Positions 1 through 20,503 of a DNA stretch of 20,503 bases are shown piece by piece. Below the pieces are notes generated by a model. It was not told where the DNA came from and ran no database searches. It saw nothing but the letters and a program-made list of their open reading frames with translations. How positions within the stretch are numbered: the stretch's first letter is position 1; every line of letters starts with the position of its first letter. The position numbers and the translations under genes were made by a program. This DNA comes from a virus (lineage: Duplodnaviria; Heunggongvirae; Uroviricota; Caudoviricetes), in IMG/VR virus record IMGVR_UViG_2684622771_000002. One strand, written 5' to 3'.

Positions 1-3000
1 TCATACGCTATACCGTTAAAAATAATGGGCGGAATAATAATCTGGCGGTCAAAGTTATGATCATCGCTGATGGTGACTGTAACCGTACCGTCTGGTGTTT
101 CCGTGTTACCCCACGTACCGACTTTTTTCGGGAAGGCTTTTGATACAGCTTTAACGAAATCCCCTCTGACCTGGGTCGCCTCCAGCATGCCCTTAATCGT
201 ACAGTTCTGGTTAATCGTGACATTGTTGAGCGTTCCTGAGTTCGCATTCACACTACCACTGATATCCGCATTTTTAGCGGTCAGCTTTCCGTCTGATGTC
301 AGGGAAAATACCGGAGGACTGCCACCGCTGGTAATGGCGGGGGCTGTCAGGCGCTTCAGGAACACGTCGTTCATGAATATCTGGTTGCCCTGCGCCACAA
401 ACATCGGCGTTTCATTCCCGTTTGCCGGGTCAATAAACGCGATACGATTGGCGGCAACCAGAAACTGGCTCAGCTTGCCTTCCTCCGTGTCCTCCATGCT
501 GAGGCCAATACCCGCGACATAATGTTTGCCGTCTTTGGTCTGCTCAATTTTGACGCCCCACATCGCATTCCATTTATCGTTAGCGTCCTTCCACTCTTTC
601 GAAAACTCATCCAGTCTGCTGGCGTTATCCTCCGTCAGATCAACTTTTTCCAGCAGCTCTTTACCGAGATGGGATTCGGTTATCTTGCCTTTGAAAAAAT
701 CCAGGTAACCTTCCGCATCATCGCTCGCCCGACCGACGGCCTCCACGAATGCCGATTTGCCAACGGTGTTCACACTGCGGATATAAAAGTAATAATCATG
801 GCCCGGTTTGATATTGATACTGGCGGCTATCCAGTACAGCCCCGCGCCAAGGTAGCGGGCTGTGGTTTCAACCTGCCTGATATCGGTAATCCGCGTTTCC
901 GAGAACCAGAACTCAAACTGTACCGTCGGATCATAAACCGCAAGATGCGGCGTGGCAGTTATCTGAAAATAGCCCGGCGTCAGCTCAATCCGCGACGGTG
1001 CTACCGGTGCGGCAATCCTGAACGATACCGACGCCGGATCGCCCTGCTGTCCCCAGGCATTTACCGCCCGGACTGTCAGCGTGTACCGTCCCAGCGCCAG
1101 TTGCGTGAAGCGGTATGTGGTTTCCGTCGTCCGGGCCGTGCTGACCAGCCGCTCACTGCCGTCATCCGCTGCCACGGTCAGGCGAAGCATAAAGCTCACC
1201 CCCTTCACCACCTTCGGCGTGTCCCAGCGCGCCAGCACCTGATATTCCCCGCTGTCTGCGGTGACTTCGGCAGTCAGGTGCTGCACCGCTGGCGGCGTGA
1301 CACCATTCACCGTGCCGCTCTGGTCGCCGTCAAAGTGCGCCCCGTTATCCACGATGGCTTCTTTTTCCGGTACATGCTGCACGGCAGTGATGGCATACGT
1401 GCCGTCATCGTTCTCACGGATACTCACACAGCGGAACAGGCGCTGGCGCAACGTCGGCAGCTTCAGCCCCCACACGCTGTATTCAGCAACGCCGTCAGGA
1501 ACACGGCTCACTTTCACCTTCACGCCGTCGGTGACGGACTGAACCTCCACGCTGACCGGATTGCCACTTCCGTCAACCAGGCTTATCAGCATGGTACCGG
1601 AGGATGGCAGCGTGATTTCACGGTCGAGCGTCAGCGTCCGGGTCTGGCTGTTTACCGCCAGCACGCGCCCGCCGATGCTGATACCCGCATAGTCATCATC
1701 ACAGATTTCAATGACATCGCCCGGCACATGGCGAAGCCCTTCTGCGCCCACGCTGAAGTCCACGGTCTGCGTTTCCAGCAGTTCTGTTTTAATCAGCCAC
1801 AGCCCGGCGCGGTGTGCCTGCCCCNNNNNNNNNNNNNNNNNNNNNNNNNNNNNNNNNNNNNNNNNNNNNNNNNNNNNNNNNNNNNNNNNNNNNNNNNNNN
1901 NNNNNNNNNNNNNNNNNNNNNNNNNNNNNNNNNNNNNNNNNNNNNNNNNNNNNNNNNNNNNNNNNNNNNNNNNNNNNNNNNNNNNNNNNNNNNNNNNNNN
2001 NNNNNNNNNNNNNNNNNNNNNNNNNNNNNNNNNNNNNNNNNNNNNNNNNNNNNNNNNNNNNNNNNNNNNNNNNNNNNNNNNNNNNNNNNNNNNNNNNNNN
2101 NNNNNNNNNNNNNNNNNNNNNNNNNNNNNNNTCTGCCCGTTCCATACCGGCATACAGCGCATCGCCGAGCAGAAATCACTGAGCACATCCCACGCCTTGC
2201 GCTGTGTGGTCAGGTACGCATTACAGGTGATGCGCGGCTCCGTGCCGCCAAAGCCGTCCGGCACTGACTGGTCGCAGTACTGGCCGATGACATACAGCGC
2301 CCATTTGTCCACATCCGCCGCACCAAGACGTTTCCCCATGCCGTAGCGCGGGTGGGTCAGCATATCCCACAGACACCAGGCCATGTTGTTGCTGTATGCT
2401 GGTTTTAACGTTCCGTCCCAGATACCGCTGTATTGTCGCGTCTGCGGGTTATAGTTCGACGGCACCTGCAGAATGCGCCCGCGAAGATGATAATTACGAC
2501 TNNNNNNNNNNNNNNNNNNNNNNNNNNNNNNNNNNNNNNNNNNNNNNNNNNNNNNNNNNNNNNNNNNNNNNNNNNNNNNNNNNNNNNNNNNNNNNNNNNN
2601 NNNNNNNNNNNNNNNNNNNNNNNNNNNNNNNNNNNNNNNNNNNNNNNNNNNNNNNNNNNNNNNNNNNNNNNNNNNNNNNNNNNNNNNNNNNNNNNNNNNN
2701 NNNNNNNNNNNNNNNNNNNNNNNNNNNNNNNNNNNNNNNNNNNNNNNNNNNCCCCATGCCATAGCGCGGATGGGTCAGCATATCCCACAGACACCAGGCC
2801 ATGTTGTTGCTGTATGCCGGTTTTAACGTTCCGTCCCAGATACCGCTGTATTGCCGCGTCTGCGGATTATAGTTCGACGGCACCTGCAGAATGCGCCCGC
2901 GAAGATGATAATTACGGCTCACCTGCTGGCTGCCGAACTGCTCCGAATCCACCTGTACGCCGACCAGTGCCGTGTTCGGGTAGCACTGTTTCACATCGAT

Positions 3001-3922
3001 GATTTCGGTGTATGACGACCAGAGCGTTTTGTTCTGCAGCTGGTCTGTGGTGCTGTCCGGCGTCATTCTGCGCATCCGGATATTAAACGGGCGCGGCGGC
3101 AGGTTATCCACCACCACCGAGGCCAGATACTGCGAGGTGGTTTTGCCCTTAATGGTGATGTCTTTTTCCGTCACCCAGCCACCGTTACGCTGTATCTGAA
3201 CCAGCAGGCGAACTTCAGACGGATTCCTGTCTCCCTTTGAGGTGGTTTTGCCCTTAANNNNNNNNNNNNNNNNNNNNNNNNNNNNNNNNNNNNNNNNNNN
3301 NNNNNNNNNNNNNNNNNNNNNNNNNNNNNNNNNNNNNNNNNNNNNNNNNNNNNNNNNNNNNNNNNNNNNNNNNNNNNNNNNNNNNNNNNNNNNNNNNNNN
3401 NNNNNNNNNNNNNNNNNNNNNNNNNNNNNNNNNNNNNNNNNNNNNNNNNNNNNNNNNNNNNNTGATGTCTTTTTCCGTCACCCAGCCACCGTTACGCTGT
3501 ATCTGAACCAGCAGGCGGACTTCCGACGGATTCCTGTCTCCCTTTGAGGTGGTTTCCACCAGTGCCTGTACACCGAAGGTAAAGCGCAGACGGTCGATGT
3601 TTGCCGACGTGATGGTCCGGGTGATCGGCGTGTCATATTTCACTTCCGTACCCAGCACCGTCTCGGAGCCGGAGGATTCAAATCCCTCCGGCGGTGACTG
3701 CTCCTGCTCACCTGCCCGGAACACCACCGTGACGCCGGAGATGTTGGTATTCCCCTCATTGTCCAGCACCGGCGTACTGTTCAGCAGCACGCTTTTTAAT
3801 CCATCCACCGGACCTTCAACCGGCCCTTCACTGATGGCATCGATCACACTCAGCAGCTGCGTGGACTTCAGGTTGTCCTTCGCTTCGCGCGGGGTATGCC
3901 CCTTACTGCTGCCTTTACCCAT
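1..3922 (-). CDS. J: Tail tip / host specificity protein J (central tail fiber); partial, C-terminus beyond the left window edge; interrupted by three N-runs and duplicated gap flanks
   Basis: ORF track 3254..3922 starts [24 protein letters not shown] (lambda gpJ N-terminus); 2494..3174 continues [16 protein letters not shown]...HPRYGMG; my translation of the minus strand at 2132-2500, 1741-1824 and 1-420 continues the J frame ([12 protein letters not shown]; [16 protein letters not shown]; [27 protein letters not shown]...[13 protein letters not shown]) with no stop reaching position 1. Start is 60 nt after the I stop, as in lambda. Confidence 0.9.
1825..2131. other. Run of 307 N (assembly or scaffold gap) inside J
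   Basis: Literal n characters. Flanks do not overlap; the J sequence missing between them is about 86 codons by comparison with lambda, so the gap size is roughly realistic. Confidence 0.95.
2334..2501. repeat. Gap-flank duplicate, copy 1 (168 nt of J coding sequence), 6 transition mismatches to copy 2
   Basis: Direct alignment with 2752..2919: identical except 6 transitions. Both encode the same J segment ([29 protein letters not shown]...HPRYGMG). Confidence 0.9.
2502..2751. other. Run of 250 N (scaffold gap) between two overlapping contig ends
   Basis: Literal n characters; the flanks 2334..2501 and 2752..2919 are near-identical copies, so the true gap length is negative (contig ends overlap). 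Confidence 0.95.
2752..2919. repeat. Gap-flank duplicate, copy 2 (168 nt of J coding sequence)
   Basis: See 2334..2501. Confidence 0.9.
3156..3248. repeat. Gap-flank duplicate, copy 1 (93 nt of J coding sequence); followed by a chimeric contig tail at 3249..3257
   Basis: Aligns to 3463..3555 with 2 transition mismatches. The last 9 nt before the N-run (tgcccttaa) repeat 3143..3151 instead of continuing the J frame, which the segment after the gap does continue. Confidence 0.85.
3258..3462. other. Run of 205 N (scaffold gap) between overlapping contig ends
   Basis: Literal n characters; flanks overlap (3156..3248 versus 3463..3555). Confidence 0.95.
3463..3555. repeat. Gap-flank duplicate, copy 2 (93 nt of J coding sequence)
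   Basis: See 3156..3248. Confidence 0.85.
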
Positions 3923-3982: not shown

Positions 3983-4654
3983 TCAGCGACCAATCACCAC
4001 AACCTGACCACCGTCCCCTTCGTCTGCCGTGCTGATCTCCTGAGATACCACACGTGACCCCACGCGCATTTCACCATACAGAACAGGCATAACATTGCCC
4101 TGGGCAACCATGTTATCCAGTGAGGAGAAATAGGTGTTCTGCTTACCGTTATCCGTTGTCTGTGTGCGGGGAGTTCTGGCTTTCGGTGCCAGCATCTGAG
4201 CCACACCGCCGAGCACCATACTGGCACCGAGAGAAAACAGAATGCCGGTCATACCACCGGCACCAATGGCAGCCCCCCATGCTGCAAGGGTGGCTCCGGC
4301 GGTAAAGAATGATCCGGCAATGGCGGCTGCTCCCAGGACAATCTGGAATACACCACCTGACTTGGCCCCGGCGACTCTGGGAACAATATGAATCACAGCG
4401 CCGTCAGGCAGAGCCTCATGTAACTGTGCCGTTAATCCGGACGTGCTAACATCCTGCCCGGCAATACGCACCTGATACCAGCCGTCGCTCAGCTTCTGAC
4501 GAAACGCAGGGAGCTGTGTGGCCATCGCCCGGATGGCTTCGGCACCCGTTTTCACACGAAGGTCGATGCGGCGGCCAAATCGTTGCAAATCCCCGTAAAG
4601 GCAGATGCGTGCCATGCCCGGTGACGCCAGAGGGAGTGTGTGCGTCGCTGCCAT
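3983..4654 (-). CDS. I: Tail tip assembly protein I
   Basis: ORF track 223 aa, MAATHTLPLASPGMARICLYGDLQRFGRRIDL...; length equals lambda gpI (223 aa); overlaps the 3-prime end of K by 103 nt exactly as lambda K/I do. Confidence 0.95.
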   Translation of the reverse strand: MAATHTLPLASPGMARICLYGDLQRFGRRIDLRVKTGAEAIRAMATQLPAFRQKLSDGWYQVRIAGQDVSTSGLTAQLHEALPDGAVIHIVPRVAGAKSGGVFQIVLGAAAIAGSFFTAGATLAAWGAAIGAGGMTGILFSLGASMVLGGVAQMLAPKARTPRTQTTDNGKQNTYFSSLDNMVAQGNVMPVLYGEMRVGSRVVSQEISTADEGDGGQVVVIGR

Positions 4655-5214
4655 TTGTCGGTGTACCTCTCTCGTTTACTCAGTTGTTCAGGAATATGGT
4701 GCAGCAGCTCGCCGTCACCACAGTAAATGGCGGCATGATTCGGCACCGATGAACCAAAACAGCACAGCAGCACATCGCCCGGCTGCGCCGCTGACAACGG
4801 CACCTGATACAGCCCTGTGGCCTCCAGATTATCCAGATAGAGATTCTGACCGTGACGCCACCAGTCATCCTCACGATGAAAATCCGGCATCTCAATCCCC
4901 GCCAGATGGTAAGCATCCCGGAACAGCGTGTAACAGTCCGTCACCCCGTGCTCAAAGCGCCGCCCGGTAAGATGTGGCACACAGCGGAACTTGTGAATCG
5001 CCCCCCGGCAGACCAGCCACCACGGCAAATCACTCTGCACCTGCAGCCGCCGGTCGGCCTCACTCAGCCAGGGCAGACCACCGTCCGGCTCACCGGAGAT
5101 ATTCACGCAGGGGAAATATCTTTCCCCCTCCGGCGTTCTTACCACGAAGCCGCACGACTCCGCTGGAGCACATCGCCGGGCGTGCGCCAGAATCGCTGAT
5201 TCTGTCTCTGTCAT
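4552..5214 (-). CDS. K: Tail tip assembly protein K (NlpC/P60 Cys-His motifs intact; MPN/JAMM motif incomplete, HxH absent)
   Basis: ORF track 220 aa starting 5 nt after the L stop. NlpC/P60-type motifs are visible (DCYTLFRDAY, NHAAIY, HHIPE). The JAMM-like tail GGLPWLSEAD is present but no H-x-H precedes it (reads GEPDGGLPWLSEAD). Confidence 0.9.
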   Translation of the reverse strand: MTETESAILAHARRCAPAESCGFVVRTPEGERYFPCVNISGEPDGGLPWLSEADRRLQVQSDLPWWLVCRGAIHKFRCVPHLTGRRFEHGVTDCYTLFRDAYHLAGIEMPDFHREDDWWRHGQNLYLDNLEATGLYQVPLSAAQPGDVLLCCFGSSVPNHAAIYCGDGELLHHIPEQLSKRERYTDKWQRRTHSLWRHRAWHASAFTGICNDLAAASTFV

Positions 5215-5219
5215 GGGAT

Positions 5220-5918
5220 TTACTGCGAAAGTTTGTTAATGGAAAGGAAGCCGCCAAAGTTGCCGACGTTATTGCGAAACTTACAGCCACTCAGGCATTT
5301 GCTGCATTTATCCTTCGTGATGTCGGACGTTGGCTGGTCATATTCATCCGCGACCGCCGGACCGTGATAACCGCACTCATCGCCGCGATAGGTCCAGGTG
5401 CAGGTGTTGGCCAGCATGATACGTCCCGGAAAAACAGCGCCATCTGTTTCCGTCGGCGTGGACAGTACAAAAGAGGCACTCACCGCGCTCAGTTCGCTGC
5501 ACTGCTCAATGCGCCAGCGGCTGATCACCTCCTGCTCCGGATCGGCGTCACTGTTTCCGTTGACGAAGTTCACCGCATCCAGAAAACGGGCGTAAACCTT
5601 ACGCCGGACCACCGTTCCGCCGACCAGACTCTGTAGATCTTCCGCCATCCCGGTGACCATACCGTACAGGTTAGAAACCATCAGCGTGGGGCGCGTACTG
5701 GTGCCTTTGCCATTCAGTTCAAAACCACTCCCCTGAATGGGATACGGCTGATACTGTCGCCCCTGCCAGGTGACCGGCTCACCTTTTTCGTTCTGCTCAT
5801 TACAGAAAAAATAACGTTCTCCACCGACCTCTGTCAGATCGATTTCCCAGAGCACCACGCTGGCCGACTGCTCCGCACGGGTGCATTCATTCAGTGTTTC
5901 CTGCCGGATATCCTGCAT
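5220..5918 (-). CDS. L: Tail tip protein L
   Basis: ORF track 232 aa, MQDIRQETLNECTRAEQSASVVLWEIDLTEVGGERYFFCNEQNEKGEPVTWQGRQYQPYPIQ; same length as lambda gpL; C-terminal Cys cluster (CSKCLSGC). Confidence 0.95.
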   Translation of the reverse strand: MQDIRQETLNECTRAEQSASVVLWEIDLTEVGGERYFFCNEQNEKGEPVTWQGRQYQPYPIQGSGFELNGKGTSTRPTLMVSNLYGMVTGMAEDLQSLVGGTVVRRKVYARFLDAVNFVNGNSDADPEQEVISRWRIEQCSELSAVSASFVLSTPTETDGAVFPGRIMLANTCTWTYRGDECGYHGPAVADEYDQPTSDITKDKCSKCLSGCKFRNNVGNFGGFLSINKLSQ

Positions 5919-19778: not shown

Positions 19779-19835
19779 AGCAATTTAGATAATCGTGCAG
19801 ACTACGCCCCCTCATATCACATGGAAGGTACTACA

Positions 19836-20246
19836 ATGGCTCAGGTTGCCATTTTTAAACAAATATTCGATAAAGTGCGAAATAATTTAAACTATCACTG
19901 GTTTTATTCTGAACTAAAACGTCACAATGTCTCACATTACATTTACTATTTAGCCACAGAGAATATTCATCTTGTTCTTGAAAACGATAATACGGTTTTA
20001 ATAAAAGGACAGGGTAAGGTTGTAAATGTAAGATTTTCAAAAAATAAATGCCTTATAGAAGCCACCTTAAAAGGATTCAAATCAGGAGAGTTATCATTTT
20101 ACGAATACAGGAAAAATCTTGCTACAGCAGGGGTTTTCAGATGGATTACAAATATCCACGAAAACAAAAGGTATTACTATACCTTTGATAATTCATTACT
20201 CTTTACTGAGAACATACAGAACACTACACAAATATTTCCGCACTAA
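19836..20246 (+). CDS. AT-rich accessory gene; probably DUF1398 family (YbcV/YdfO-like prophage protein), function unknown
   Basis: ORF track 19821..20246; I prefer the internal ATG at 19836 ([58 protein letters not shown]...), which has a GGAAGG Shine-Dalgarno 8 nt upstream and gives 136 aa. GC content is clearly below that of the flanking phage genes. Confidence 0.65.
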
Positions 20247-20283: not shown

Positions 20284-20503
20284 TCGCTGGCATGATGAAA
20301 TATGTGTACCCGGTAACCCCGGTGTGCATCGTTTTTGATTATTCCCGCACACTCGCGCAGAAGGAGTTCCCCGTCGGGCTACGGTCTCTGTTAATACGGG
20401 AATACGGCGACGATTGGATTTGCCCCTATATTTCCAGACATCTGTTATCACTTAACCCATTACAAGCCCGCTGCCGCAGATATTCCCGTGGCGAGCGATA
20501 ACC

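Follow-up and report, generated by a model that had tools for sequence, protein, structure and literature searches.

In a small set of assemblies of Shigella sonnei, where a lambda-like prophage is widespread, gene K of this prophage carries an in-frame deletion of 27 codons that removes both zinc-binding histidines of the JAMM motif from the MPN/JAB domain of the tail tip assembly protein and leaves its NlpC/P60 domain in place. Comparison with related sequences indicates that the deletion is derived, very recent and rare, and we regard neutral decay of a probably cryptic prophage as its probable explanation. The allele was found in a stretch of 20,503 nucleotides (the window), which corresponds to S. 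sonnei contig CWYT01000074.1 of assembly GCA_001250955.1.

Results

Gene K in the late operon

The ORF list and translation place a lambda-type late operon, spanning Nu1 to J, on the minus strand of the window. Its gene order is H-M-L-K-I-J, with the neighbours of K confirmed by Pfam, so that the ORF at 4552..5214 (minus strand, stop codon included) occupies the position of a lambda-type tail tip assembly protein K. As the first-pass annotation of this DNA had read from the ORF list, it encodes 220 amino acids (beginning MTETESAILAHARRCAPAESCGFVVRTPEGERYFPCVNISGEPDGGLPWLSEADRRLQ...) and starts 5 nt after the stop codon of gene L, the spacer being TAAATCCCATG. Gene L itself (5220..5918, minus strand, stop at 5220-5222; ORF list, PF05100) is intact and encodes 232 amino acids. 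The 3′ end of K overlaps the start of gene I (3983..4654, minus strand; Pfam Lambda_tail_I, E 3.4e-27, and gene calls), which is likewise intact and encodes 223 amino acids from an upstream ATG or 190 from position 4555; gpI is presumed to be a ubiquitin-like partner or substrate of K. The other readable late genes of the window, from Nu1 to I, are intact and of normal length. In an annotated E. coli prophage the products from the portal protein to I have the same lengths, and its Nu1 and A ORFs correspond as well, which agrees with the earlier observation that the late genes other than K are normal. Outside the gap described below, K of the window is 96-98% identical to K of phage 434, of lambda and of an E. 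coli prophage.

An exact 81-bp deletion

Alignment with phage 434, with two independently sequenced lambda genomes (PV340536 and LC730321) and with an E. coli prophage gave a single clean gap of exactly 81 bp (27 codons), which changes Glu44 to Asp and removes residues 45-71 of a 247-residue protein in frame. The breakpoint lies inside codon 44 (GAG becoming GA/C), between window positions 5084 and 5083 on the minus strand (5083..5084); the junction reads GCCGGA/CGGTGG, the slash marking the breakpoint, and the fused codon, GAC, is at 5083-5085. The first-pass annotation had suspected an in-frame loss of about 27 codons by comparison with lambda. These alignments bear out the loss; the lambda stretch that it quoted was slightly off, with GEPEAISRMSPEDW where lambda has GEPEAYFRMSPEDW.... 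It had also put the distance from the L stop to the K stop at about 80 nt less than in lambda; the shortening is real, but its exact size is 81 bp, and it is only in comparison with NC_001416, a record one base short, that the gap comes out at 80 bp. A megablast search with window positions 4400-5400 matched 266 of 50,697 phage records, and among the matches listed (30 phage records) the alignments were in two pieces, with 1,080-1,082 record bases per 1,000-1,001 query bases, all 30 having the extra 81 bp. We looked for microhomology or direct repeats at the junction and none was present, a nearby CCGGTG repeat being out of register. Slippage as the origin of the window deletion is therefore not supported, unlike the case of the del55-83 allele discussed below.

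The missing base in the lambda reference also explains the short form in which lambda K is usually annotated. NC_001416/J02459 reads GGAGGC-TATTTCC where PV340536 and LC730321 read GGAGGCGTATTTCC, one G being absent from the reference; KT232076, DE3, the lambda imm21 and imm434 hybrids and many lambdoid phages have 72 bases where the reference has 71. OR974322 and OR474059, whose provenance is unclear, also match the reference sequence. With the extra G, lambda K starts at an ATG 5 nt after L, is 247 residues long and has a complete JAMM motif, including the H-S-H that the first-pass annotation had allowed might be absent from lambda. Without the G the upstream frame is broken, and K is consequently annotated as a protein of 199 residues beginning at M48 (NC_001416, UniProt P03729). 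The earlier proposal to extend P03729 to the upstream in-frame ATG thus fails on the reference, which is one G short of the independent lambda resequencings. Our literature search did not find a published note on this discrepancy in the K reference. The widely copied 199-residue annotation has its start within the MPN domain and leaves out the catalytic Glu, a point relevant to modelling or annotating K homologues.

Loss of the JAMM histidines

In the JAMM motif, E-x(n)-H-S/T-H-x7-S-x-x-D, two histidines and the aspartate bind zinc, the glutamate is the general base and the serine stabilises the intermediate, and mutation of JAMM residues abolishes Csn5 activity (PMC300881). Intact K matches this motif exactly, with E19, H68-S-H70, seven residues and S78-E-A-D81. 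The window protein, which reads ...CVNISGEPDGGLPWLSEADRRLQ... across this region, retains E19 (aligned with a column that is glutamate in 98 of 101 homologues), G72-G73 and S78-x-x-D81, the last as its own S51-E-A-D54 with the oxyanion serine and the third zinc ligand. It has lost H68-S-H70, which lies within the 27 deleted residues (AYFRMSPEDWLQAEMQGEIVALVHSHP in the parent protein). The residues 8 and 10 positions before S51 are P43 and G41, exactly the retained S-x-x-D with Pro and Gly in place of HxH that had been described from the translation.

What is left of the MPN/JAB domain falls on either side of the junction. The part before it (residues 1-43; 5086..5214, minus strand) comprises helix 1 and strands 1-2, as judged from a partial Prok-JAB match and structure models, and carries the JAMM glutamate E19 at 5158-5160; the part after it (residues 45-78; 4981..5082, minus strand) corresponds by protein alignment to residues 72-105 of intact K and carries S-x-x-D at 5053-5064. 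Against Prok-JAB (PF14464) the window protein scored 20.3 bits over residues 4-39 (profile positions 4-40 of 114), below the curated Pfam cutoff of 25 bits, whereas intact K scored 52.3-53.9 bits. The JAB domain of the window protein is thus internally truncated, and the protein does not have the two-domain JAB plus NlpC/P60 architecture.

The AlphaFold model of an intact close homologue (P0024, pLDDT 85.5) consists of a helix (3-15), two strands (21-27 and 30-36), a helix (51-60), a strand (62-69), a further helix (79-88) and two further strands (92-96 and 99-103), followed by the NlpC/P60 domain. Mapped on this model, the deletion takes out a loop together with helix 51-60 and the strand terminating in H68-S-H70, from which we infer that the MPN fold of the window protein would lack core elements. 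In the AlphaFold model of the window protein (75.7 overall) the confidence of the N-terminal blocks falls from about 90 to 55-84, the NlpC/P60 blocks being at 78-92; this drop is no more than suggestive and is not taken to show misfolding, model confidence not being a measure of stability. The N-domain model of intact K matches P. furiosus JAMM1 (5ld9; target TM-score 0.63, rmsd 3.0 Å), Rpn11, CSN5 and AMSH. Searching PDB sequences with intact K gave a single match, the uncharacterised JAB protein 2kks, and no solved K-like structure.

The NlpC/P60 domain (residues 84-197; 4624..4965, minus strand) is intact. It matches PF00877 over profile positions 1-105 of 105 with 49.5 bits (E 4.5e-13), against a curated cutoff of 23 bits, and its C94 (4933-4935), H160 (4735-4737) and H172 (4699-4701) correspond to C121, H187 and H199 of intact K. 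H173 is kept as well, and the motifs DCYTL, NHAAIY and HHIPE are all present, as had been noted at first reading. The C-terminal cysteine-peptidase domain is therefore untouched and may still fold.

To place these residues in the K family, 1.84 billion representatives were scanned with HMMER, which gave 1,725 K homologues at E values up to 1e-10, and conservation was read from an alignment of 101 full-length representatives that are 31-58% identical to K. H68 and D81 are conserved in all 101, H70 in 100, S78 (as Ser or Thr) in 100 and E19 in 98, and the NlpC/P60 triad of C121, H187 and H199 in 100 each. Moreover, 1,720 of the 1,760 records with a K match in the phage collection (about 98%) cover at least 80% of the two-domain protein. 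Residue conservation and the prevalence of the two-domain form together indicate that both active sites are under strong purifying selection in the family. Since two of the three zinc ligands are gone, and since the JAMM residues are essentially invariant in 101 divergent homologues, established JAMM enzymology predicts that the isopeptidase site of the window protein is almost certainly dead. The first-pass proposal of a lost metalloprotease site beside a retained NlpC/P60 domain is accordingly backed by alignment, Pfam scores, family conservation and structure model alike.

Recent origin and distribution of the allele

Exact look-ups of the neighbouring I and A proteins led to a complete chromosome of 4.82 Mb, CP104423.1, whose prophage has an intact K of 247 residues, recorded as C40 family peptidase [Shigella sonnei]. 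A single mismatch and no gap separate chromosome and window over 13,793 nt (99.993% identity), and the two are 100% identical for 2,391 nt up to the deletion junction, at which the chromosome has an additional 81 nt. In the parent prophage (L011) these additional 81 nt, GGCGTATTTCC...CAGCCACCC, stand exactly at the junction. The identical junction is present in three separately deposited S. sonnei assemblies (L004, L006 and L005, the last being the window), and an exact-protein look-up recorded the 220-residue protein on four contigs, all named Shigella sonnei. Compared over K and I, the three loci differ solely in two synonymous bases in K of the window; the deletion is the only difference between L004 or L006 and CP104423.1 over these two genes, gene I of the sister assemblies being identical to that of the parent prophage. 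An exact look-up of the Nu1 protein was unspecific (35,593 blocks).

The intact allele of 247 residues was found on at least 1000 contigs, against four for the deleted allele. A 60-bp query spanning the junction had no match in 5,426 complete E. coli genomes at E 1e-12 and gave only split half-matches in complete E. coli genomes at E 1e-5, and exact junction patterns found nothing in GTDB species representatives, IMG/VR or JGI metagenomes. We also considered the reverse polarity, in which the short form would be ancestral and the others would carry an insertion, and rejected it because the segment is present in all 101 divergent homologues and in the near-identical parent prophage. By these comparisons the deletion is derived, very recent and rare.

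Rare in-frame deletions of K occur also in E. coli prophages, where they affect both domains. Two 9-bp direct repeats (GGCTGCAGG, at K nucleotides 161 and 248) exactly bracket the del55-83 allele (P0027, P0031, P0033, P0037 and P0041), which recurs on several backgrounds; further examples are del54-81 (P0030), del66-93 (P0043) and del46-88 (P0069). Each MPN-deleted allele was seen on 1-6 contigs and none came from a phage record. Deletions are about equally common in the NlpC/P60 and MPN domains, as expected for unselective decay.

Insertion sequences and other lesions in the prophage

The contig break is caused by an IS2 element, the end of which (20414..20503, no strand assigned) lies about 1.26 kb upstream of Nu1 and matches at 100% regions annotated as 'IS3-like element IS2 family transposase'; the same IS2 junction is found in the complete chromosome L017. 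A terminase look-up showed that in complete chromosomes with the same prophage IS2 lies between the lysis/KilA-N genes and DUF1398-Nu1. An IS1 between Q/porin and the holin gene was seen in related complete chromosomes only, not in the window's own assembly. Taken together, these positions separate the late promoter region from the structural genes by two insertion sequences. Other strains (L019 and L021) have an integrase-AlpA-Bro-primase element that interrupts the portal gene, and L012 and L018 have further split genes, which may be sequencing errors. Given that IS1 and IS2 part the late-gene activator Q from the structural genes and that other strains have further lesions, the prophage was probably already cryptic. 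Q-modified RNA polymerase resists terminators, however, so the two insertions need not abolish late transcription.

Discussion

We favour a defective tail module that arose by neutral decay over a tolerated loss of the MPN site, because a rare and very recent allele in an IS-disrupted prophage stands against JAMM residues that do not vary across the family. The deletion would then be one more selectively neutral event in a small S. sonnei clade whose prophage was probably cryptic beforehand, and the prophage, if it can still be induced, would most likely form no functional tails unless another resident lambdoid prophage supplies K. The window comes from a draft genome with several lambdoid prophages, in which 81 bp could have been lost by mis-joining or, as the first-pass annotation had allowed, by collapse. 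In gene J of the same contig three N gaps were bridged by scaffolding, and the contig ends on either side of them overlap at only 96-98% identity, a sign of paralogous J copies in the genome and of prophage copies that confused the assembly. K, however, sits in a gap-free stretch of 17 kb, its junction has no repeat or microhomology that could collapse, and three separate assemblies share that junction, with the intact allele on at least 1000 other contigs, so that an assembly artefact is very unlikely. A further alternative is selection for the deleted allele. A crippled prophage K might poison tail-tip assembly of superinfecting lambdoid phages as a dominant-negative defence, and there is circumstantial encouragement for this in the in-frame allele keeping an interaction-competent C-terminal domain and in tail-assembly interference being a known defence strategy, though the paper on that strategy does not mention K. 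The allele is nevertheless confined to four contigs with no sign of spread, it is doubtful whether a lysogen would express it from a late operon broken by insertion sequences, and we found no precedent that involves K; we give this interpretation very little credence.

A working K of 220 residues is nonetheless conceivable from the sequence, since the deletion is in frame and the other readable late genes (Nu1 to I) are intact. The MPN/JAB domain would in that case be dispensable for tail assembly, and the shortened protein would do its essential job through NlpC/P60; in a variant of this idea the JAB domain might instead act in counter-defence by taking ubiquitin-like tags of the host off the central tail fibre. 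According to the literature, lambda tails are not assembled without gpK, virions do not contain it, and neither its location nor its role is known, which leaves room for a dispensable domain. For K, Iyer, Burroughs and Aravind (2006) predicted a JAB domain that acts on gpI by cleaving its ubiquitin-like domain, and Hör et al. have speculated that DUB domains in siphophage tail-assembly proteins counter the Bil defence; a literature search found no experimental test of the K JAB site. A deletion that spares NlpC/P60 and every neighbouring gene, and the existence of at least five other in-frame deletions in the MPN region of E. coli prophages, would also fit such a loss. Set against it are the invariance or near-invariance of the JAMM residues in 101 divergent homologues, the two-domain form of about 98% of phage records with a K match, and the rarity of MPN-deleted alleles (1-6 contigs), none of them from a phage, all 30 of the phage records listed having the extra 81 bp. 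NlpC/P60 deletions are, moreover, about as common as MPN deletions, and the window deletion removes core fold elements beyond the ligands alone. On balance we consider tolerated loss unlikely.

Under neutral decay the finding itself is minor, a further lesion in a decaying prophage, with four contigs on record. As a natural deletion it is clean all the same, in that the metal-binding core of the JAB domain has been removed and the rest is identical to a known intact parent, and it could be used in a complementation test. There is a slim chance, somewhat below that of tolerated loss as such, that the 220-residue K is a natural separation-of-function allele, which would support tail-tip assembly through NlpC/P60 while the JAB domain serves another purpose. 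If so, the conserved JAB domain may clear the central tail fibre of ubiquitin-like tags of the host's Bil type, in line with the speculation of Hör et al., and the window allele and the recurrent del55-83 would be ready-made reagents for a question about JAB function that dates from 2003-2006.

Comparison with known systems

The closest well-known counterpart of the window protein is lambda gpK, with which it shares the position in the L-K-I-J cluster, the 5-nt spacer between L and K, the overlap with I, the NlpC/P60 motifs and 96% amino-acid identity outside the gap. It differs from lambda gpK in lacking residues 45-71 with H68-S-H70, in the E44D substitution and in falling below the Prok-JAB threshold. 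Intact K has the full motif of the JAMM/MPN+ metalloisopeptidases (AfJAMM, P. furiosus JAMM1, Rpn11, Csn5 and AMSH); the window protein, in contrast, keeps the glutamate and S-x-x-D but has lost the two histidines that bind zinc, along with their strand and helix, and therefore resembles an MPN-minus remnant rather than an enzyme. The other MPN-region deletions of E. coli prophages are, like that of the window, rare and in frame; they span 27-43 residues, disrupt the MPN core and leave NlpC/P60 intact, and most of them also remove H-S-H. Their breakpoints differ from that of the window allele, which has no flanking repeat and a single origin. Finally, Iyer, Burroughs and Aravind (2006) described versions of K with NlpC/P60 only as probable degenerate forms typical of integrated prophages. 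The window protein is like these in lying next to I without a functional JAB domain, but it still keeps about 78 JAB residues, and in its case the existence of the intact parent allele in an otherwise near-identical prophage dates the event as very recent.

Recurrent in-frame deletions in K

Among the K proteins of E. coli prophages in alignment A4, residues 55-83 are recurrently deleted in frame (P0027, P0031, P0033, P0037 and P0041), with loss of both the H-S-H and the S-x-x-D elements of the JAMM motif, and this deletion is found on several different sequence backgrounds. It is bounded exactly by two 9-bp direct repeats, GGCTGCAGG, that lie 87 nt apart (lambda K nt 161 and 248), a placement that suggests a hotspot for slippage. 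Further in-frame deletions of K are rare (P0030, P0043, P0069, P0082, P0095, P0107, P0117, P0126 and P0129) and are found in the MPN domain as well as in the NlpC/P60 domain.

Composition of the window contig

The window differs from the two sister assemblies that share its K deletion at two synonymous sites, K nt 537 (window 4678) and K nt 552 (window 4663), which lie shortly upstream of where gene I starts and next to the position of the ribosome-binding site in the phage 434 annotation. The differences may be real SNPs, or the consensus may have been contaminated by a paralogous copy of K. Gene J in turn contains three runs of N (window 1825-2131, 2502-2751 and 3258-3462), and the flanks of two of them overlap (2334-2501 with 2752-2919; 3156-3248 with 3463-3555). 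Since these overlapping flanks are only 96-98% identical, the contig is a scaffold mixing reads or contigs of more than one J copy; the genome of the isolate probably holds another lambdoid tail module.

Insertions in the prophage

The contig ends in an IS2 terminus (window 20414-20503), about 1.26 kb upstream of Nu1 and just past a DUF1398 gene (19821-20246), and this insertion is shared with complete chromosomes carrying the same prophage. In the complete chromosome CP104423.1 (locus L017, 3402-4100), and likewise in a further locus, L018, the holin gene of this prophage is separated by an IS1 from the Q antiterminator/porin genes; with the IS2, two insertion sequences thus stand between the late promoter region and the structural genes. 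Other strains have an element inserted in this prophage's portal gene, which breaks off after 293 codons (L019 13007-20000, from CP041322.1; L021 3905-12000). The element encodes capsid and decoration homologues of its own as well as an integrase, AlpA, Bro-N, a D5-type primase and SSB, and has the appearance of a phage satellite or of a second integrative element.

The lambda reference sequence of K

Comparison with loci L007 and L008 showed that one G is absent from gene K in NC_001416/J02459, at lambda about 14,267 (L002 about 13400+868), where the reference reads GGAGGC-TATTTCC and the independently sequenced lambda genomes PV340536 and LC730321 read GGAGGCGTATTTCC. Many other records spanning the site, among them DE3 and the imm21 and imm434 hybrids of lambda, likewise carry one base more than NC_001416; the NC_001416 state recurs in OR974322 and OR474059, both of uncertain provenance. 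The missing G breaks the upstream frame, and the NC_001416 annotation consequently gives lambda K as 199 aa from M48, as against 247 aa including the JAMM Glu.
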